NCBI GenBank assembly: GCA_019058295.1
Contig: JAHPZI010000007.1
Coordinates: 32,001-96,000, forward strand
Origin: Promethearchaeota archaeon
GTDB taxonomy: Archaea > Asgardarchaeota > Lokiarchaeia > Sigyniarchaeales > SOKP01
DNA length: 64,000 nt
Direction of reading: 5' to 3'
The position numbers and the translations under genes were made by a program. The notes beneath the pieces were generated by a model. The model was not told the origin of the DNA. It searched no databases and saw nothing but the letters and a program-made list of their open reading frames with translations. This document shows positions 4,041-32,601 of the stretch, piece after piece. Numbering within the stretch: position 1 is the first letter of the stretch; each line of letters opens with the position of its first letter.

Positions 4041-6020
4041 ATGAAAAAGGATCAAACTCAATGGAATGATACAAAGAATAACGAAGAATTAGATAAACTA
4101 AGAATAGGATATTATTGTTGCGAATGAGGAATAAATATAAGAGGAAAAATTGACTGCGATAAATTAGCGGAGTATATTAAAAACCTTGATGACGATATAA
4201 TAATATCTAAGAAGAATGCGTTTCTATGAACTGATGCAGCGCAAAATGAAATAATCGAAGATATTAACGAAAAGAACTTAAATCGTATCGTGGCTAGTTC
4301 TTGAACTCCAAGAACGCACGAGCCAATTTATCGCGATTCAATTTCAAAAACAGATTTAAATCCTTACTACTTTCAGATGGTAAATATTCGTGAACATTGC
4401 TCTTGGGTTACAGAAAAAAAAGAGGACGCATTTGAAAAGGCAAAAATTCTAGTAAAGAGTGGTATTGCAAGGGCAAAATGTTTAGAAGTAGTTCCGATCA
4501 GAACTGTACCCGTCGAAAAAGCAACTCTAATAGTAGGGGGTGGAATCGCGGGTATGAATGCTGCGCTCGATTTGGCTAATCAGGGAATTAAAGTTTATCT
4601 TGTTGAAAAAAAGACAACAATAGGTGGTCGCATGGCTCAGCTCGATAGAACATTCCCGACTGATGACTGTGCAATATGAATTTGCGGTCCAAAAATGTTA
4701 GAAGTTAATAGAAATCCTAATATAGAAATAATTAGTTATGCTGAAGTAAAAAAAGTTGAAGGTTATGTTGGGAATTATACTGTAACTGTCGAAAAGAAGC
4801 CTCGATATACAAATAATGATTGTAATGGATGCGGGGCTTGTTCTGAAGTATGTCCCATATACACGATAAATTATTTTGATGAAAATTTAAGCGCTCGAAA
4901 AGCGATTGATATATCATTTGGCCAAGCAGTTCCTTTTCTATATGATATTGATCGAACAGTATGCGTAGAATGCTTTTCTTGAGTGGATGCTTGTGAATTA
5001 GATGCGATTGTATTTAGTCAGGTACCAGAAGAAGTCACCTTTCAAGTCGGTACAATAATTATCGCAACAGGTTGGGATATTCACGAACCCTATGGTGAAT
5101 ACGGTTATGGTGAAATTGAAAATGTTATTACACAAGCACAGCTTGAACGCATGTTGGCTCCAAATGGACCACTTGAAGGGCATGTGCGTAGAATATCGGA
5201 TGACAAAAAACCCAAGGAAATTGTATTTATTCAGTGTGTTGGAAGTCGCGAAACTGATAGAACATATTGTAGTGGAGTTTGCTGCATGCTTGCACTTAAA
5301 AATGGTCGATTGCTTTTAGAAGAATTTCCTGATGCTAATATTACAATATGTTATATTGACATCAGAACAAACGAGAAGGGATTCGAGGAATATTATCAAC
5401 GAGCCAAAGATGCTGGAATGAAAATGATTCGAGGGAAAGTAGGGGAATTCTCAGAAGATCCCGAAACAAAAGATGTTAAAGTACGTGTATATTCCTCTCT
5501 AACTGATGAAATAATTAACATCGATGCAGATTTAGTTGTTCTATCAAGTGCAGCACTGCCTTCACGAGGTACTGAACAAATTGCTAAGGTTCTAAACTTA
5601 GATACGGATAGGAATGGATTTCTTACGGAATCTCATTTTGGTTTGATGCCGCAAGAAACGAAAACAAAGGGAATTTTTATCGCAGGATTCGCTCAGGGTC
5701 CCAAAGACATCGCATATTCCGTATCTCAAGCACGAGCAGCGGCGAGTAAAGTTGCTGAAATGACTTCTGCAGGAGAAATAGAACTTGAACTTATAATAGC
5801 TGAAGTAGATAAAGAATTATGCATTTCATGTAGAAGATGCGAAAAGGAATGTCCAAAATCAGCTATAAAAATTACCGACGCTGAAGGGGCTGTTGTAGAT
5901 GAGATAAATTGTGATGGGTGTGGAATATGTGCGACGTGCTGTCCTACACAAGCAATTGATATACGATATTATAGAGAGAAACAATTATATTCTGAAATTT
6001 CGGCTATTTTAGAATCTTAG
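4041..6020 (+). CDS. hdrA: Heterodisulfide reductase subunit A, selenoprotein with 5 in-frame UGA (Sec), 659 aa
   Basis: Single frame from ATG 4041 to TAG 6020 joining track ORFs 4377, 4695 and 4983. UGA at 4125, 4227, 4302, 4677 and 4980, each at a conserved HdrA Cys position. GGGIAG FAD motif, FIQCVGSR, ferredoxin motifs. Confidence 0.93.
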
Positions 6021-6042
6021 ATAACATGGAGGTCTAATAAAA

Positions 6043-6483
6043 GTGGAAAATAATTATTCAATTCTTATGTTTGCGTGTTTAAAATGAGGTTATGGTGCGG
6101 CAGATTTAGCAGGTGTTTCACGATTTAAATACAGTCCTACAGTTAAAATCATCAAATTAAGGTGTACAGGAAGAATTGATGTTAAACATCTCTTGTTTGC
6201 TATAAAATCTGGTGCGGATGGTGTGATGATTGTAGGCTGACGTCCTAATGAGTGCCAATTTAAAGATGGAAACTTTAAAGCCCAAACCCACGTTGATCTT
6301 GCAAATAGAATATTAGATCGTAGAGGTTTTGGGAACCAAAGAATAAATCAGTATTGGTTAAGCTCAGCTGAATCAGAGAAATTAGTAAAAAGTGTTGAAG
6401 ATACAATTGAAAAAATTCAAAGATTAGGGCCTAATCCTCTTAAATCTATCGCAAAAAAAGTCTTAACTACCCCAGCTGAATGA
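6043..6483 (+). CDS. mvhD: MvhD/VhuD hydrogenase iron-sulfur subunit, selenoprotein with 2 in-frame UGA (Sec); not in the ORF track
   Basis: GGAGGT RBS 6028-6033, GTG 6043. MENNYSILMFACLK-U-GYGAADLAGVSRFKY...RCTGRID...GADGVMIVG-U-RPNECQF...WLSSAE...LGPNPL. UGA at 6085 and 6238; ends at TGA 6481-6483 (or TAA 6490-6492 if read through). Confidence 0.92.
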
Positions 6484-6537
6484 ATCTTGTAAATAAATTC
6501 TAGTTACAAGCTAACAATCCTTGCAATGGATGGGGTA
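6468..6537 (+). other. Candidate eukaryote-like SECIS element overlapping the mvhD stop codon
   Basis: TACCCCA 6468-6474 pairs with TGGGGTA 6531-6537; ATGA 6480-6483; CTTGTAA 6486-6492 pairs with TTACAAG 6504-6510; apical AA 12 nt after ATGA. The 3' core reads UAAC instead of the usual NGAN. Confidence 0.55.
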
Positions 6538-6589
6538 TTAATGAATAAAATATATATTTTTAAAAATAGGATAAAAATATTGTAGGAAT

Positions 6590-8098
6590 ATGGTTCAAGT
6601 AATAAATAACAAGACTTTTAAGGGCATCTCTCCAAATAAATTAATGGAAGCTACATATAGAGCTGCTGAAAATTTTCAGGTAAGGGCTTTCTATGAAGCT
6701 AAGAATGAAATCTTGAAAGTAGGGAAGTACACAGAAGAAGAATTTTTTAAAATTTTAGATGCGATGATTGATGCTGAGACTGAGCGAAAATTAATATTAG
6801 AGAGATTAAAAAGTAAAGAACCACTGTTTTTGGAAGAGATTGTTAAGATTATCAAGGAATTTTCCCCTGATAATGTTATTCGAGATATAATATATCTTAA
6901 GGAACAAGGTTATATTGATGAAAAAATTGAAGTTAAAACTAAAAAGGTCATAAAAAAGATCAAAGGAGAAGAAAAGGAAGTAGAAGAAAAAGAATATTTT
7001 TATAGATATCAAGTAAAAGATCTTCCAGATGATTTTATTGAACATTATTTTGAACCTGTTTCAATTGTTTTTGAGGCTGAAGTATGTTGTCATTGTGGTT
7101 GGTGTTCATCTATATGCCCTGTGAACGCAATTACAGTCACAGCAGATATATTAGAAATTGATGATAATGCTTGTATGAAATGTGGATTATGCTATACTAT
7201 TTGTCCTCGTTCATTTTCAATCGATCAAGCATATAAAAGTATTAAAAATTTAGATAAATCCTTAAAGTGGTCAGATAAAATTGGGGCTTATTATAACACT
7301 TATTCTGGATCAACTACGAAAGATAAAATTAAAAAAGTCAGGCAAGATGGAGGTGTTGTAACAACTCTACTTGAATATTTATTGAAAAATAAATTGGTTG
7401 ATGCAATTGTTGCGGTTCAACATTCAGTGGATTTATGGAGACCTGAACCTGTGATTGTGGATAATATTAAAGATTTATATAAAACTGGAGGAACGAAATA
7501 TGCAAATTCGCCTTCATTAGAAATCATTGATAAAGCAAAACAATATAACCGTTTAGCAGTAGTGGGCGTTCCATGTATGATGAAAGCTATTGAAAAAGCA
7601 ACATTATTTCCCAGTGGTCTGCCATTTTTTAACAATATTAAATATAAAATAGGGCTCTTTTGTATGGAATCATTTTCATATGCAAAAATAATCAATTTAG
7701 TTAAAGATAAATTTGATAAAGAAATTAATGAGTTAACTAAAATGAATATTGATAAAGGGAAATTTATAATTAACTTAACTTCTGGTGAGGAAATGGCAGT
7801 TGATTTGAAAGAAGTTCAATCTTATGCTCGCCATACTTGTCATTTTTGCGAGGATTTAACATCTGATTATGCTGATATCTCAGTGGGTTCAATAGGATCA
7901 CAGGCTGGCTGGTCTTCAGTAATAACAAGATCAAAAGAAATTGATGAAATTTATAAAGGCGCTGTTAAAGATGGCCTTATTGAATCACAAAACTTAAAAG
8001 AGGTAAAACCAGGGCAATTTTTAGTTGAGCGAATTGCGGGAGTGAAAAGAACAAAGTGTAAAGATCCTTTTTTAGAATTGAAAAAAAAAAGCCAATAA
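6590..8098 (+). CDS. FrhB-family F420-binding subunit with N-terminal helical/winged-helix region and 2x[4Fe-4S]
   Basis: CCHCGWCSSICP, CMKCGLCYTICP, QDGGVVT, VGVPC, IGLFCMESF, CHFCEDLTSDYADISVG. Confidence 0.9.
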   Translation: MVQVINNKTFKGISPNKLMEATYRAAENFQVRAFYEAKNEILKVGKYTEEEFFKILDAMIDAETERKLILERLKSKEPLFLEEIVKIIKEFSPDNVIRDIIYLKEQGYIDEKIEVKTKKVIKKIKGEEKEVEEKEYFYRYQVKDLPDDFIEHYFEPVSIVFEAEVCCHCGWCSSICPVNAITVTADILEIDDNACMKCGLCYTICPRSFSIDQAYKSIKNLDKSLKWSDKIGAYYNTYSGSTTKDKIKKVRQDGGVVTTLLEYLLKNKLVDAIVAVQHSVDLWRPEPVIVDNIKDLYKTGGTKYANSPSLEIIDKAKQYNRLAVVGVPCMMKAIEKATLFPSGLPFFNNIKYKIGLFCMESFSYAKIINLVKDKFDKEINELTKMNIDKGKFIINLTSGEEMAVDLKEVQSYARHTCHFCEDLTSDYADISVGSIGSQAGWSSVITRSKEIDEIYKGAVKDGLIESQNLKEVKPGQFLVERIAGVKRTKCKDPFLELKKKSQ

Positions 8099-9227: not shown

Positions 9228-10520
9228 GTGAAAAATATAACTGAATCAAAGTCAGGATCAAAAAAAGAATTAGAACGTAAAAAATTATTTTCTGATGCAT
9301 TTAAATATTTAGACAAAGTTTATGAACCAAATTTAAGAAATATTTTGAAAAGATGTTATCAGTGTGGCCGCTGTAGCGGTGTTTGTCAAGTAAGTAAAGT
9401 TCAAAAATTTACTCCAAGTAAAATTATTCAATTAATATTAGAAGGTTTTGAAGATAGAGTAATTGAAAGTGGTGTCTTATGGGATTGTTTAACTTGTAAT
9501 CAATGTCTGAAAGATTGTCCAGAACAAATAAATTTTGCAGATCTTGTACGAATGGCCAGATACAAAATGAGACATGAAGCAGATCAAAATCCTAGTGAGA
9601 TGGTTGCTCATAAAGGGATCTACACTACAATATCTGAACTAATGAGTCGCCCTTATATCGAGCCAGATAGAAATCTTGATTGGATACCTAAAGAATGTAA
9701 AATCACAGATAAGGGAGATACTTTATATTATGTTGGATGTATACCCTATTTTAATTTTGAATTTGAGAATTTAGATAATATCGCATCAAGTACATTAAAA
9801 ATAATGTGTCAATTAGAAGAAGAACCTATTGTAGTTTTTAAAGAAGAAAGTTGTTGTGGACATGATTTATATTGGGGTCAAGGGAAAATAAAAACATTTA
9901 TTAAACTAGCAATGAAAAATATTGAAATGTTCGAAAAAGCAGGAATATCTACAATTGTGACTGCATGTGCTGAGTGTTATAGAACATTTAAAATAGATTA
10001 TCCTAATATATTTGACGATTTTAATGAAAAATTTAAAGTAAAGCATTTAATTGAATATGTGTATGAAAAATGGAAACAGAATAAAATTGCTTTTAAAAAT
10101 CCTAATGAAGATGATAAAGTAATACCTTTTACTTATCATGATCCATGTAGATTAAGCAGATTCTTACCAAATGATAATAATATAACAGAAAAGGTTCGAG
10201 AAATTTTTAAAGAATTTAAAAAATTAGGCTATGAATTTAATGAAATGTTGCATAATAAAGAAAATTCTCTATGTTGCGGAGTTAGTTCTTGGATGAATTG
10301 CAATGAGAAAACTAAAGCGCTGCGATATAAACGTATGTTAGAAGCAAAAGAAGCTGGTGAGATTATGGTTACATCTTGTCCAAAATGCAATATACATCTA
10401 AGTTGCATTCAAAATGATTTTGAGAATATCGCTTCAATTAAAATTATGGATTTTTCTGAATTTTTAGTTGATCATATCGAAGTAATAAAAGACGAAGATA
10501 ATTTGGAGGGAAAGGTGTAG
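9228..10520 (+). CDS. HdrD/GlpC-like Fe-S oxidoreductase (2x[4Fe-4S] plus two CCG domains)
   Basis: CYQCGRCSGVC, CLTCNQCLKDCP, SCCG, TACAEC, YHDPCRL, LCCG, TSCPKC. Confidence 0.9.
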   Translation: MKNITESKSGSKKELERKKLFSDAFKYLDKVYEPNLRNILKRCYQCGRCSGVCQVSKVQKFTPSKIIQLILEGFEDRVIESGVLWDCLTCNQCLKDCPEQINFADLVRMARYKMRHEADQNPSEMVAHKGIYTTISELMSRPYIEPDRNLDWIPKECKITDKGDTLYYVGCIPYFNFEFENLDNIASSTLKIMCQLEEEPIVVFKEESCCGHDLYWGQGKIKTFIKLAMKNIEMFEKAGISTIVTACAECYRTFKIDYPNIFDDFNEKFKVKHLIEYVYEKWKQNKIAFKNPNEDDKVIPFTYHDPCRLSRFLPNDNNITEKVREIFKEFKKLGYEFNEMLHNKENSLCCGVSSWMNCNEKTKALRYKRMLEAKEAGEIMVTSCPKCNIHLSCIQNDFENIASIKIMDFSEFLVDHIEVIKDEDNLEGKV

Positions 10521-13500
10521 TGGAAGGCTCTGTTTTAGTAATTGGGGGTGGTATTGCTGGCATACAAACTTCATTAGATCTCACCGAATTGGGTTTTAAA
10601 GTTTATTTAGTAGAAAGATCACCCTCAATAGGAGGACGTATGTCACAGTTAGATAAGACATTTCCCACTAATGATTGCAGTTTATGTATTCTTGCTCCTA
10701 AAATGGTTGAAGTCTTCAGAAATCCAAATATTGAATTAATGACATATCACGAAGTAAAAAAGGTTACTGGTAAAACTGGTAATTTTCAAGTGACAGTTCT
10801 TAAAAAACCTCGATATATTGATGAGACAAAATGCAAGGGATGTGGTGATTGTGCATCTAAATGCCCAAAAATCGAAGTTCCTAATGCTTTCGATATGAAT
10901 TTAGGAAAAAGAAAATCAGTATATATACCATTTCCTCAAGCTGTACCCCCTATTTATTTAATAGATCCTGAATTATGTCTAAAGCTTACTAAAGGGGTTT
11001 GTGGTGTTTGTGAAAAAGTTTGTCAAGCTGAAGCAATTGTTTATGACCAAAAACCAAAAGAAATTTCAATAAATGTTGGAGCAATTGTTGTAGCTACTGG
11101 ATTTGATATGCCTGCTGAAGAATTATCTTCAAGATGGGGCTATAAATATAAAAATGTTGTAAGTGCTCTTGAATATGAAAGAATCCTATGTGCATCGGGG
11201 CCATTTGAAGGCCATGTTTTAAGGCCGAGTGATGAATCAGAACCAGAAAAAATAGCTTTCATCCAATGTGCCGGTTCTAGGGATTTACATGAAAATGTCC
11301 CATATTGTTCAAGTGTATGTTGTATGTATACTGCAAAAGAAGCAATAATTACTAAGGAACACTCAGATAATTCAAATTGTTTTGTATTTAGGCATGATAT
11401 TAGAGCTTATGGTAAAAATTTTTATGAATTTACTCAAAGGGCTCAAGATGAATATGGGGTTAAATATTTTCAAACAAAAATTAGTAAAATCGAAGAAGAT
11501 AAGGAAACTAATGATTTAATTATCCATTATGAGGATTTAAAATCAGGAAAATTCAATGATTTTCGAGCAAATTTAGTAGTATTAGCTACACCATTAGTTC
11601 CTTCGAAAGGTACAATAGATTTGGCTGAAATTTTGGATATAGAATTAGATCATTACGATTTCTTTAAAGAAAACTCATATTTTAATAAATCTTTATCATC
11701 AAGCGAGGGTATTTTCTTGTGTGGTTTTTGTCAGGGACCAATGGACATACCCGAAACTGTAGCTGATGCAAGTGGAGTTGCTTCTCAAATAGCTGCTTTA
11801 TTAAATTCAGTAAAATATACTGAAACAAAAGAAAAAGTTTTAGAAATACCTGAAATGGAAGTTAAAATATCAGATGAGCCACGAATAGGAGTATTAGTAT
11901 GTCATTGCGGTATTAATATAGGTAAATACGTTGATGTTTCTGAAGTTGTAAATTATCTTAAAACATTACCTTATGTTATTCACAGTGAAGCTAATTTATA
12001 TTCATGTTCCAGTGATTCTCAAGCAAGGATAAAGGAATTAATTAAGGAACATAATTTAAACAGATTTATTGTAGCATCATGTACACCAAGAACTCATGAA
12101 GCATTATTTCAAGAAACATGTCAAGAAGCTGGATTAAATAAATACTTATTTGAAATGGTTAATATCAGAGATCAATGCTCATGGGTTCATATGGGAGATA
12201 ACAAAGCTGCTACTGAGAAAGCTAAGGATTTAATTAGGATGGCAGTTGCGAAAGCACGCTTATTAAAACCATTACCAGAAGCGAAATTGGATATTATACC
12301 CACTACTCTTATTATTGGAGGAGGTGTCTCTGGAATGACTGCTGCATTAAATATAGCTTCTCAGGGATTTAAAGCATATATTATTGAAAAAGAAAATAAG
12401 CTAGGAGGAAATTTAAACAATCTTAATATTTTATATCCAATTCAAGAAGAGGCTTCATTATTTTTGAATGATATCAAGGATAAGGTTAATAACAATAAAA
12501 ATATCCAAATTTTCTTCAATTCTAAAATCAAGAATATTAAAGGTTATATCGGTAATTATGATGTTTCAATTATCGATTCAGAAAATAAAACTTATGATCT
12601 AAAAATTGGAACTATAATTGTCGCCACAGGAGCTCAAGAATTAAAGCCTGATGGAATTTTTCTATATGATAGAAAAAATAGAAATATTATAACTCAATTA
12701 GATTTAGAACAAAAACTAAAAGATAAAGATAAATCATGGTTAGATAATATAAACCGCATAACAACAATTCTATGTGTTAACGCAAGACAAAAAGAAGGAA
12801 TTACTTATTGCTCTAACGTCTGTTGTGGTGTTAGCATTAAAAATATTAATATATTAAAAGAATTGAAACCTGAGCTCGAAATTATTGTTCTTTATAGAGA
12901 TTTCCAAATGGCCAAAAAAGATTTTGAAGAATATTATCGTGAACGTAGAAAAGATGCTGTGTTTTTAAGATATGATTTGGATAATTTACCTAAAATTAAT
13001 AAAACAAATGATAAAATTGAAAAATATAATATAAAGGTATTTGATACTAACTTACAGGACGAGATTGAATTCGAAACAGATTTAATAATTTTATCTACTC
13101 CAATGATCCCAGCGGATAACTTGGAGGAATTGGCAAAAATGCTTAAAGTTCCATTAGATAAAAACGGTTTCTTTTTAGAGGCTCACGTTAAATTAAGACC
13201 TTTAGATTTTGCAACAGATGGAATCTTTTTAGCAGGATGCGCACAATGGCCAAAAAATATTCAAGATTCGATTTCTCAAGCTAATGGTGCTGCGGGGAGA
13301 GCAAGTAGGTTTTTAAGTGCTAAAACAATAACAACCTCAGGTTTAATCGCTGAAGTGAATCCCGAAAGATGTATTGGATGTGGAAAATGTGAATCCGTTT
13401 GCCCTTATAATGCAATAGAAATTAAAGAAGCATCAATGGACTTTGAGGATGTCAGTTTAGTTTTGAAAAAGTCATTCATAAATTCAGCATTATGTAAAGG

Positions 13501-13606
13501 ATGTGGAACTTGTGCTGCTACTTGCCCGAATGGAGCAATTTCAGTGAAACATTACGATTTTGATCAAATTTATGCAATGATTGAATCATATTTATTGGAA
13601 AGATAA
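10520..13606 (+). CDS. hdrA: Large HdrA-like flavoprotein (two FAD modules, internal HdrA N-terminal-type domain), all-Cys
   Basis: GGGIAG and GGGVSG FAD motifs, DKTFPTNDCSLCILAPK, RIGVLVCHCGINI...ASCTPRTHE, EAHVKLRP, terminal ferredoxin. Confidence 0.92.
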   Translation: MEGSVLVIGGGIAGIQTSLDLTELGFKVYLVERSPSIGGRMSQLDKTFPTNDCSLCILAPKMVEVFRNPNIELMTYHEVKKVTGKTGNFQVTVLKKPRYIDETKCKGCGDCASKCPKIEVPNAFDMNLGKRKSVYIPFPQAVPPIYLIDPELCLKLTKGVCGVCEKVCQAEAIVYDQKPKEISINVGAIVVATGFDMPAEELSSRWGYKYKNVVSALEYERILCASGPFEGHVLRPSDESEPEKIAFIQCAGSRDLHENVPYCSSVCCMYTAKEAIITKEHSDNSNCFVFRHDIRAYGKNFYEFTQRAQDEYGVKYFQTKISKIEEDKETNDLIIHYEDLKSGKFNDFRANLVVLATPLVPSKGTIDLAEILDIELDHYDFFKENSYFNKSLSSSEGIFLCGFCQGPMDIPETVADASGVASQIAALLNSVKYTETKEKVLEIPEMEVKISDEPRIGVLVCHCGINIGKYVDVSEVVNYLKTLPYVIHSEANLYSCSSDSQARIKELIKEHNLNRFIVASCTPRTHEALFQETCQEAGLNKYLFEMVNIRDQCSWVHMGDNKAATEKAKDLIRMAVAKARLLKPLPEAKLDIIPTTLIIGGGVSGMTAALNIASQGFKAYIIEKENKLGGNLNNLNILYPIQEEASLFLNDIKDKVNNNKNIQIFFNSKIKNIKGYIGNYDVSIIDSENKTYDLKIGTIIVATGAQELKPDGIFLYDRKNRNIITQLDLEQKLKDKDKSWLDNINRITTILCVNARQKEGITYCSNVCCGVSIKNINILKELKPELEIIVLYRDFQMAKKDFEEYYRERRKDAVFLRYDLDNLPKINKTNDKIEKYNIKVFDTNLQDEIEFETDLIILSTPMIPADNLEELAKMLKVPLDKNGFFLEAHVKLRPLDFATDGIFLAGCAQWPKNIQDSISQANGAAGRASRFLSAKTITTSGLIAEVNPERCIGCGKCESVCPYNAIEIKEASMDFEDVSLVLKKSFINSALCKGCGTCAATCPNGAISVKHYDFDQIYAMIESYLLER

Positions 13607-13633: not shown

Positions 13634-14071
13634 ATGTCAAAAACAAAAAGAAAAGTTAAGAAAAAAGATTTTAATCCGGAAATTTTAGTTTTTTGTTGTA
13701 ATTGGTGCTCTTATGCAGGAGCAGATCTAGCAGGAGTTTCAAGATTCCAATATCCTCCTAATATGAGAATTGTTCGTGTTATGTGTTCAGGAAGAGTTGA
13801 TCCCTCATTTGTATTAAAAGCTTTAAAAGAAGGAGCTGATGGTGTTCTTATTACTGGATGCCATATAGGTGATTGTCATTATATCAGTGGTAATGAATAC
13901 ACTCGAGATAGATTTCAAAAACTTCATCAATTTATTATAAAACAACTGGGAATAAATGGAAAACGTGTAAGATTAGAATGGGTAAGTGCCTCTGAGGGAA
14001 AGCGATTTGCTGAATTAATCACTGAATTTACTAATCAAATAAAAGAATTAGGCCCATTTAAAGTTCTTTAA
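13634..14071 (+). CDS. mvhD: MvhD hydrogenase iron-sulfur subunit (Cys form)
   Basis: FCCNWCSYAGADLAG, RVMCSGRVD, GCHIGDCHY, WVSASEG. Confidence 0.95.
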   Translation: MSKTKRKVKKKDFNPEILVFCCNWCSYAGADLAGVSRFQYPPNMRIVRVMCSGRVDPSFVLKALKEGADGVLITGCHIGDCHYISGNEYTRDRFQKLHQFIIKQLGINGKRVRLEWVSASEGKRFAELITEFTNQIKELGPFKVL

Positions 14072-31818: not shown

Positions 31819-32601
31819 TTGACAGAACTGGATAGAAATTTAGAATGTATATTTGTAATGGTAGGGGCAATTTTTGTTGCATCTATTGTCATTATTGCAG
31901 CAATTTTATCGTATTTTGAGATGGGATATAATCCGATTGAATATACTATTAGCGAACTAGCACTTTATAGATATAGAACATTATTTAGTATTGGTTTAGT
32001 TTCAGCAGGGTGTTTACTTATTCCTTTTTTTATAAAACTAGAAAGAGAATTAGTTAATATAAAAGAAAATTTAAGAAAAAGCGCCACAGCAGTCGCTATT
32101 TTTGCTTCAATTTGTACTTCCATGGTTGGCGTAATTCCTGATATAGAATATCGTAAAGTATTTGATCTTTTTCACATATTTGTTGCAGTGATTGCATTTG
32201 GCGGTTCTGCTACTTATATCTTCCTCTACAGTATCTTAATGTATAAAGGACATAGTTCTCCCATGTATAAAGGACCTCAATTCAAACGACACGTATCATA
32301 TTATGGTATTTTCATCTTTGGGAATTTTATTATACTACTCCTTATTTTTATACCCCCAATAGAATGGATGTTATTTATTAATATTTTAACTTGGAACTTT
32401 ATAACTGCCTATTACATAATTAAATATAAATTTTCTGGCATTCCAGGTATTTATTATAAAGAAGAACAATATCCAGAAATGCTGGAAAAATTTGAAGAAT
32501 CCTTGATGATATTAAAACAGTTAAATTTAGAGGATGATCCTATGGCAGAGGTTCTTAAAGAAAATATAAAATTTATAAAAAGTGCTCAAGATAAAAACTA
32601 A
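31819..32601 (+). CDS. Membrane protein, DUF998/Frag1-like
   Basis: GYNPIEYTISEL, about 6 TM helices, HIFVAVIAF, PPIEW. Confidence 0.7.
   Translation: MTELDRNLECIFVMVGAIFVASIVIIAAILSYFEMGYNPIEYTISELALYRYRTLFSIGLVSAGCLLIPFFIKLERELVNIKENLRKSATAVAIFASICTSMVGVIPDIEYRKVFDLFHIFVAVIAFGGSATYIFLYSILMYKGHSSPMYKGPQFKRHVSYYGIFIFGNFIILLLIFIPPIEWMLFINILTWNFITAYYIIKYKFSGIPGIYYKEEQYPEMLEKFEESLMILKQLNLEDDPMAEVLKENIKFIKSAQDKN

Follow-up and report, generated by a model that had tools for sequence, protein, structure and literature searches.

Many UGA codons in one message can be decoded processively from a 3′ selenocysteine insertion sequence (SECIS), as in vertebrate selenoprotein P, where two SECIS serve one cistron and the product functions in selenium transport. 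The gene examined here is an hdrA at 4041-6020 in a stretch of 64,000 nucleotides (hereafter the window; positions 32,001 to 96,000 of contig JAHPZI010000007.1, assembly GCA_019058295.1) from a Promethearchaeota archaeon of the class Lokiarchaeia. The preferred reading, with a probability of about 0.8, is that this gene encodes a full-length HdrA of 659 residues, with selenocysteine (Sec) inserted at five UGA codons under the direction of one SECIS shared with a downstream vhuD that would contain two further Sec. As in selenoprotein P, many UGAs would lie in one message with a 3′ SECIS. Here, however, two cistrons appear to depend on one SECIS, and the predicted role of Sec is that of a metal-cluster ligand rather than a carrier of selenium.

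Multi-Sec HdrA proteins of Lokiarchaeota, and a lokiSECIS shared by HdrA and VhuD, were published by Mariotti et al. 2016 (PMC4989117). The present locus resembles those genes in the tandem hdrA-vhuD arrangement with a very short gap, in having one eukaryote-like SECIS only after vhuD, in the canonical and N-terminal Sec sites and in the placement of all Sec on conserved Cys positions. In the published set no gene exceeded four Sec, five positions were possible and one SECIS served at most six UGAs (PMC4989117), whereas five Sec and seven UGAs are predicted here. The fifth published position lies in the last Fe-S motif with a Cys right after it, and codon 314 of the present gene, in the inserted ferredoxin domain, does not match it. 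The HdrA proteins of Methanococcales (9sfi, 5odc; PMC13518236) share ~50% identity, the four-domain layout and the canonical Sec/Cys site with the hdrA product, but have one Sec or none and an archaeal-type SECIS; four additional Sec are predicted here, and the host is a non-methanogen.

A catalogue of 1439 Asgard selenoproteins was compiled by Huang et al. 2024 (PMC11227280), and its supplementary FASTA, in which Sec is written as X, holds the gene twice (i.e. Lokiarchaeia_GCA_019058415_U_5 and GCA_019058295_U_2). Both entries are identical to the hdrA product over residues 1-313, with X at 29, 63, 88 and 213, and end at residue 313 ('...VCVECFS'), i.e. the fifth UGA was taken as a stop and 346 residues are missing. 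No motifs with X in the contexts of positions 261, 311, 314, 414/415, 627 or 630 were found in this FASTA. Since selenoproteome catalogues cut such genes at late UGAs, Asgard Sec counts and inventories of full-length HdrA would be underestimated. The class is known, and the fifth Sec and the full-length reading of the gene are absent from the 2024 catalogue. New elements are the predicted seven UGAs per SECIS, the fifth Sec, the at least 11 ligand positions used across the family with repeated switching and the presumed four Sec around one cluster. The original prediction, made from the DNA letters, had described an unusually selenium-rich protein requiring processive recoding; the gene is an extreme example, with seven UGAs probably dependent on one SECIS, but belongs to a class published since 2016.

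The hdrA reading frame and its UGA codons

Translation of 4041-6020 (+) with TGA read as U produced a single frame of 659 residues with no further stop and with U at codons 29, 63, 88, 213 and 314, reproducing the frame first proposed. Under the standard code (table 11) this frame is split into three open reading frames (ORFs) of at least 60 amino acids (4377-4679, 4695-4982 and 4983-6020), which are the three broken ORFs of the original prediction. The gene and its UGA codons are as follows.

4041..6020, + strand: hdrA coding sequence, 659 codons with five in-frame UGA, stop TAG at 6018-6020; assigned by HdrA structure match and Pfam domains
4125..4127, + strand: UGA codon 29 (Sec), second Cys of the N-terminal CxC motif, HA3 domain; TGA in 53/58 loci covering the site
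4227..4229, + strand: UGA codon 63 (Sec), conserved N-terminal domain Cys position; TGA in 27 loci, TGT/TGC in 32
4302..4304, + strand: UGA codon 88 (Sec), conserved N-terminal domain Cys position, xxU-TPRTHE; TGA in 46/59 related loci
4677..4679, + strand: UGA codon 213 (Sec), canonical HdrA Sec site; TGA in 60/60 related loci
4980..4982, + strand: UGA codon 314 (predicted Sec), inserted ferredoxin domain, at the third Cys of its second CxxCxxCxxxC motif

The hdrA product matched solved HdrA chains end to end (residues 21-658 with 9sfi_A 5-651, E 1e-194; 5odc_A, E 7e-192). Pfam searches detected FAD/Rossmann and 4Fe-4S domains, including NAD_binding_8, Pyr_redox_2 and FAD_oxidored at residues 160-215. 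Cysteines were present in the inserted ferredoxin domain (261/264/267/271 and 308/311/(U314)/318), in the CX10CX3CC motif (399/410/414/415) and in the C-terminal 2x[4Fe-4S] ferredoxin domain (594-604 and 624-634). All five TGA codons aligned to Cys in the solved chains, and codon 213 aligned to the X (Sec) of 9sfi; the column of this codon corresponds to Cys197 of 5ODC and Sec197 of Methanococcus maripaludis (PMC9012536, PMC13518236). Alignment with homologs, a check named alongside the original prediction, placed five of five UGAs on Cys/Sec columns. As 33 of the 659 columns are Cys/Sec, the chance that five random positions all fall on such columns is ~3e-7 (by arithmetic). The five motif pairings that had been drawn with the paralog at 10520 were all recovered by BLASTP; this paralog is fused, its C-terminal half accounting for three of the pairings and its N-terminal half for two. 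These results confirmed that 4041-6020 is a real, full-length Lokiarchaeial hdrA with UGA codons at iron-sulfur ligand positions.

Conservation of the UGA codons was assessed in 60 mapped related Asgard HdrA loci, with denominators varying where a locus does not reach a site. Conservation across Asgard genomes, likewise suggested as a check, was observed at four sites, with TGA at codons 213, 29, 88 and 63 in 60, 53, 46 and 27 of the 60 loci. TGAs at query positions 7-10 in some relatives were discarded, being upstream of the true starts. An ortholog of hdrA was present in 104 of the 135 genomes of the same family, mostly with three to four TGA. The Cys/Sec state of codon 63 underwent approximately five changes along the ortholog tree, and comparison among relatives showed that Cys and Sec swap repeatedly at these HdrA positions. 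At least 11 ligand positions are used by Sec in the HdrA family as a whole, and the other five-Sec HdrAs among the relatives use 311, 627 or 414+415+630.

Individual relatives exhibited further Sec positions. In two orthologs (L037 and L078) the ferredoxin motif that contains codon 314 has its Sec at 311 instead, i.e. at the second Cys, and Sec was present at 261 in L080 and at 627 in L076. Within the same genus, another genome encodes an HdrA paralog (L079, G006:C12:39400-42700) with five Sec at 29, 213, 414, 415 and 630, of which codons 414/415 form an adjacent UGA pair in the CC motif assigned to cluster HA4.

The SECIS probably shared with vhuD and the selenocysteine machinery

A vhuD gene missed by ORF finders starts 22 nt 3′ of the hdrA stop and is followed by a SECIS that overlaps its end.

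6029..6034, + strand: GGAGGT ribosome-binding-like site, 8 nt ahead of the vhuD GTG start; read from the sequence
6043..6483, + strand: vhuD/mvhD (FlpD family), 146 codons, GTG start; PF02662, 141.5 bits
6469..6536, + strand: Loki-type (eukaryote-like) SECIS; alignment of 31 orthologs, covariation and covariance model

Both Sec UGAs of vhuD, at codon 15 (6085-6087) and codon 66 (6238-6240), fall on conserved Cys positions, and a two-U VhuD lies next to and downstream of HdrA in most of the related loci examined. The terminal UGA of vhuD (6481-6483) is located within the AUGA core of the SECIS, and a TAA occurs two codons further on.

The SECIS consists of helix I (6469-6473/6532-6536), the AUGA core (6480-6483), helix II (6484-6492/6504-6512), an 11-nt A-rich apical loop (6493-6503; AUAAAUUCUAG), a 3′ core AA (6513-6514) and a side hairpin (6519-6529). 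In the 31 orthologous hdrA-vhuD 3′ ends, AUGA was invariant, the 8-9 bp helix showed compensatory changes, the A-rich loop of 11 nt was conserved and the 3′ core was GA or AA. Changes on both sides were observed in 10 of 17 pairs, and none of 500 shuffles reached the observed covariation scores. The element has the features of a lokiSECIS or Asgard eSECIS-like type I (i.e. AUGA, a ~9-bp helix, an 11-nt loop starting with adenines and a 3′ GA/AA). Beyond the published core, helix and loop, an outer helix CCCC/GGGG was conserved with compensatory changes and extends into the coding end of vhuD, whilst the 3′ strand contains a conserved side hairpin CC..GCA..GG and then a T-run. A covariance model built from the orthologs produced a single match in the window (86.4 bits) and six matches genome-wide, located 3′ of this pair, two other hdrA-vhuD pairs, selD, a VhuU-like ORF and a small uncharacterised ORF. 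Rfam at gathering thresholds gave no match in the window, the SECIS included. An AT hairpin at 6553-6581 was considered as a SECIS and dropped, as the orthologs place the conserved element at 6469-6536.

Two of the genome-wide matches lie beside short ORFs. At G000:C14:93974-94392 (minus strand), a small ORF precedes a 50-bit match by ~100 nt; its product has a hydrophobic helix at the N-terminus and ends in '...GGGG-U-GC', and the ORF may encode an uncharacterised small selenoprotein or have arisen by chance. At G000:C5:1553-1786 (minus strand), a VhuU-like mini-ORF with FDC-U-LSCAAH, i.e. the Ni-ligand region of [NiFeSe] hydrogenase, is followed by a match of 42 bits.

The five UGAs of hdrA and the two of vhuD, spread over 2.36 kb, probably depend on this one SECIS. 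In the proposed mechanism, hdrA and vhuD would be co-transcribed, the kink-turn-type element at 6469-6536 would recruit an archaeal SelB/EFSec carrying Sec-tRNA(Sec), and Sec would be inserted at all seven UGAs, up to 2.36 kb away on the 5′ side. The product of hdrA would then be a full-length flavo-iron-sulfur protein of 659 residues. On this reading the known load per SECIS rises from six to seven UGAs, over two cistrons and 2.36 kb, which bears on processive recoding by the eukaryote-like Asgard SECIS. A contig of 2238 nt (X17) in a metatranscriptomic RNA library, from a ~95% identical strain, which may be the strain of Joint Genome Institute (JGI) contig L089, runs from 14 nt before the hdrA ATG into vhuD (4041-6264) and weakly supports a bicistronic hdrA-vhuD message.

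Most of the expected Sec machinery was found in the genome, i.e. tRNA-Sec, aSelB, SepSecS and SelD, together with Sel_Asgard; PSTK, the remaining component of the search, is dealt with below. Contig C30 (L022:3016-9898) contains, in order, aSelB (minus strand), a zinc-ribbon protein, two Nudix/CoA-pyrophosphatase-like genes, tRNA-Sec, SepSecS and Sel_Asgard. The aSelB is an EF-Tu-like GTPase with 238 bits on TIGR00475 (SelB) and a match to the aSelB_III domain; SepSecS scored 480 bits and Sel_Asgard, an Asgard-specific family (NF045535, 'putative selenocysteine system protein'), 232 bits. SelD, on contig C9, has one in-frame TGA and is itself Sec-containing. The candidate tRNA-Sec (C30, L022:7582-7702), directly upstream of SepSecS, scored 44.2 bits with the Rfam tRNA-Sec model, just below the 47-bit cut-off. 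The gene has a 30-nt insert in the D-loop (~7598-7628), owing to which it was not called by ARAGORN; without the insert it folds as a cloverleaf with a 9-bp acceptor, a 4-bp T-stem and the anticodon UCA. The tRNA-Sec of Lokiarchaeum has a 31-nt intron in the T-loop (Mariotti 2016, PMC4989117), so the position of the intron varies between lineages.

Predicted positions of selenium around the iron-sulfur clusters

Cys or Sec is invariant at exactly four columns of the N-terminal MvhD-like domain (27, 29, 63 and 88); these and column 213 are Cys/Sec throughout the aligned relatives and are C, U, U, U and U in the present protein. In the crystal structure, cysteines from the N-terminal domain bind the N-terminal cluster together with Cys197 of the other HdrA copy (Chadwick et al. 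2022, PMC9012536). U29, U63, U88 and U213 are all predicted to be among the conserved residues around this one cluster, HA3. By homology and from published structures, U29, U63 and U88 would occupy three of the four N-terminal Cys positions around HA3, a [4Fe-4S] 'shuttle' cluster, and U213 would be donated to it by the partner protomer. If three of the four N-domain positions (27, 29, 63 and 88) are ligands, at least two of U29, U63 and U88 would bind HA3, and these plus U213′ would place three or four selenium ligands on one [4Fe-4S] cluster. The original prediction had assigned three Sec to N-terminal ligand positions, one to a core site and one to a ferredoxin site. The Cys/Sec columns and the location of U314 in a CxxCxxUxxxC motif agreed with this assignment, but U213 is not a separate site and belongs to the HA3 set, because Cys197 is the fourth ligand of the partner protomer's N-terminal cluster (PMC9012536). 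Mariotti et al. 2016, predating the 2017 structure, regarded most of these Cys as not being cluster ligands (PMC4989117), whereas the structure-based literature now puts Cys197 on the N-terminal cluster.

U314 lies in the inserted ferredoxin domain, i.e. the domain holding HA5/HA6, and on homology and published structures would ligate one of its two clusters. By the usual ferredoxin rule this is presumably the cluster of C308, C311 and C271. A low-potential path HA3 to HA5 to HA6 has been described (PMC6019823, PMC12350162), and all five seleniums would fall within the low-potential branch, which leads from FAD through HA3 and HA5/HA6 to ferredoxin, in a module for flavin-based electron bifurcation. 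A tentative extension, given somewhat less than an even chance, is that HA3 is held by three or four selenolates with another on the inserted ferredoxin cluster, that the whole low-potential branch is selenium-tuned and that the flicker between Cys and Sec is an evolutionary tuning knob and not neutral noise. Such tuning would act on cluster potentials or on oxygen/redox robustness.

Natural ligation of iron-sulfur clusters by Sec is poorly characterised, and a 2026 cryogenic electron microscopy (cryo-EM) paper on M. maripaludis described what Sec197 does in HdrA as an open question (PMC13518236). With Sec predicted at four of the five conserved residues around one cluster and at one ferredoxin-motif ligand, the present homolog would provide a natural experiment for this question.

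The fifth UGA and alternative readings

Codon 314 was TGA in three, TGT in 44 and TGC in 13 of the 60 mapped loci. The five-site pattern was identical in L075 (G086), L077 (G109) and a metagenome contig (L090), and in all three the frame of 345 codons 3′ of the TGA was intact. In the wider protein collection, approximately nine in ten C-terminal fragments had 441-443 residues (Cys314) and a few had ~345. A maximum-likelihood tree of the orthologs from GTDB genomes placed U314 at three separate tips, forcing at least two origins. When L089 and L090 were added, L090 (U314) was sister to the window (U314) plus L089 (TGT), so that the U314 allele has probably persisted over ~17% protein divergence. 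Levels of nonsynonymous relative to synonymous polymorphism (pN/pS) 3′ of codon 314 were 0.105 against L089 and 0.124 against L090, not above those of the upstream part, as compared to ~0.5 or more expected if one lineage were unconstrained. The corresponding interspecies ratio (dN/dS) downstream of 314 was 0.02-0.05 where computable, several pairs being saturated at synonymous sites. Read-through at 314 is favoured because 345 codons after a terminating UGA would lose constraint, which was not seen. Decoding of UGA 314 as Sec is accordingly rated as likely from these comparisons of sequence. The analysis showed that the codon of the predicted fifth Sec arose through a TGT to TGA change inside a gene already recoded.

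Termination at UGA 314 would instead leave a truncated HdrA with four Sec (29, 63, 88 and 213), the downstream 345 codons being either what is left of a very young pseudogene or a C-terminal polypeptide with its own start at GTG 4983. This alternative is unlikely. It agrees with the end of the 2024 catalogue entry at '...VCVECFS', with the GTG directly after the TGA, which gives the ORF 4983-6020, with the TGT at codon 314 of the nearest strain, and with the restriction of U314 to terminal branches among the GTDB-genome orthologs. Truncation would, however, split the CxxCxxCxxxC motif midway, and no Shine-Dalgarno-like sequence is visible ahead of GTG 4983. The same TGA occurs with open downstream frames in three other diverged loci, the allele has probably persisted since before the split from L090, and pN/pS after the codon (0.10-0.12) is equal to or below the upstream value. 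The same mRNA, moreover, already has four upstream UGAs recoded by the same SECIS. Decoding that varies with selenium supply, in which limitation causes some UGAs, above all the distal or newest, to be read as stop or Cys, would generate mixed products and reliance on Cys-type HdrA paralogs. The cluster also contains a Cys-type hdrA-mvhD module 4.5 kb downstream, several more HdrA paralogs without TGA are present in the genome, and Methanococcus alternates isoenzymes with Sec and with Cys (PMC13518236). The neighbouring Cys paralog, however, is a fused and differently built HdrA and not an isoform, and such conditional decoding is improbable. An error of sequencing or assembly, or a mixture of strains, could in principle have made one or more of the TGAs, given that the source genome was binned from a metagenome assembly (30 contigs, 79% complete, 3.6% contamination) and that a natural TGT allele exists at codon 314. 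Logan contigs reproduced all five TGA in two additional samples from the source study, one (X2 record 5, 27.7x) spanning 4041-5136 with its sole difference at 5060 and the other (X3 records 10 and 12, ~6.7x) covering all five sites with its sole difference at 4922, so that TGT or TGC, which would have contradicted the original prediction, was not found in either sample. As the same 313-residue prefix was also obtained from two assemblies in the published catalogue and four of the five TGA are conserved over dozens of species genomes, an artefact is very improbable. Reassignment of UGA, genome-wide or via a tRNA, to Cys, Trp or Gly would equally put all UGAs on Cys columns if UGA encoded Cys. 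TGA is nevertheless a working stop codon that ends 231 of 1686 long frames of the genome (14%), ARAGORN detected no suppressor tRNA in the genome, no other UCA-anticodon tRNA was found, and a dedicated Sec system is present with SECIS elements exactly at genes with in-frame UGA; reassignment has almost no likelihood.

Several observations weigh against the preferred reading, i.e. a full-length five-Sec HdrA with a shared SECIS. PSTK was not found in the 79%-complete assembly (TIGR03574 and PF08433; best 22.9 and 17.2 bits, chance level); PSTK homologs of 118-160 bits are present in eight of nine genomes of the same genus. The SECIS of the window has a U.C mismatch in helix II and a 3′ core AA instead of GA, the AA variant having been reported for Lokiarchaeia (PMC11227280). 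Co-transcription of hdrA and vhuD draws on their spacing and on the RNA-library contig, from a library that may contain DNA, and the case for Sec rather than termination at every UGA comes from nucleotide sequence and not from protein. Confinement of U314 to tips of the GTDB-genome ortholog tree also fits short-lived, mildly deleterious nonsense alleles, and strain L089, at 95% identity, has TGT at codon 314. For HA3, the precise trio of ligands among 27, 29, 63 and 88 is predicted only as a set. In the 2026 M. maripaludis cryo-EM structure, a density between A3 and FAD is held by a Cys and Sec197 and was read as a Cys-Sec bridge, not as a plain ligand (PMC13518236).

Three neighbouring genes in the window encode related proteins.

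9228-10520: CCG-domain HdrD-like gene
10520-13606: fused double HdrA, 1028 residues, Cys-type
13634-14071: Cys-type MvhD, after the fused double HdrA

The fused double HdrA exhibits a complementary pattern, as in HdrA3/4 of anaerobic methanotrophic archaea (ANME) and in Moorella (PMC9012536).

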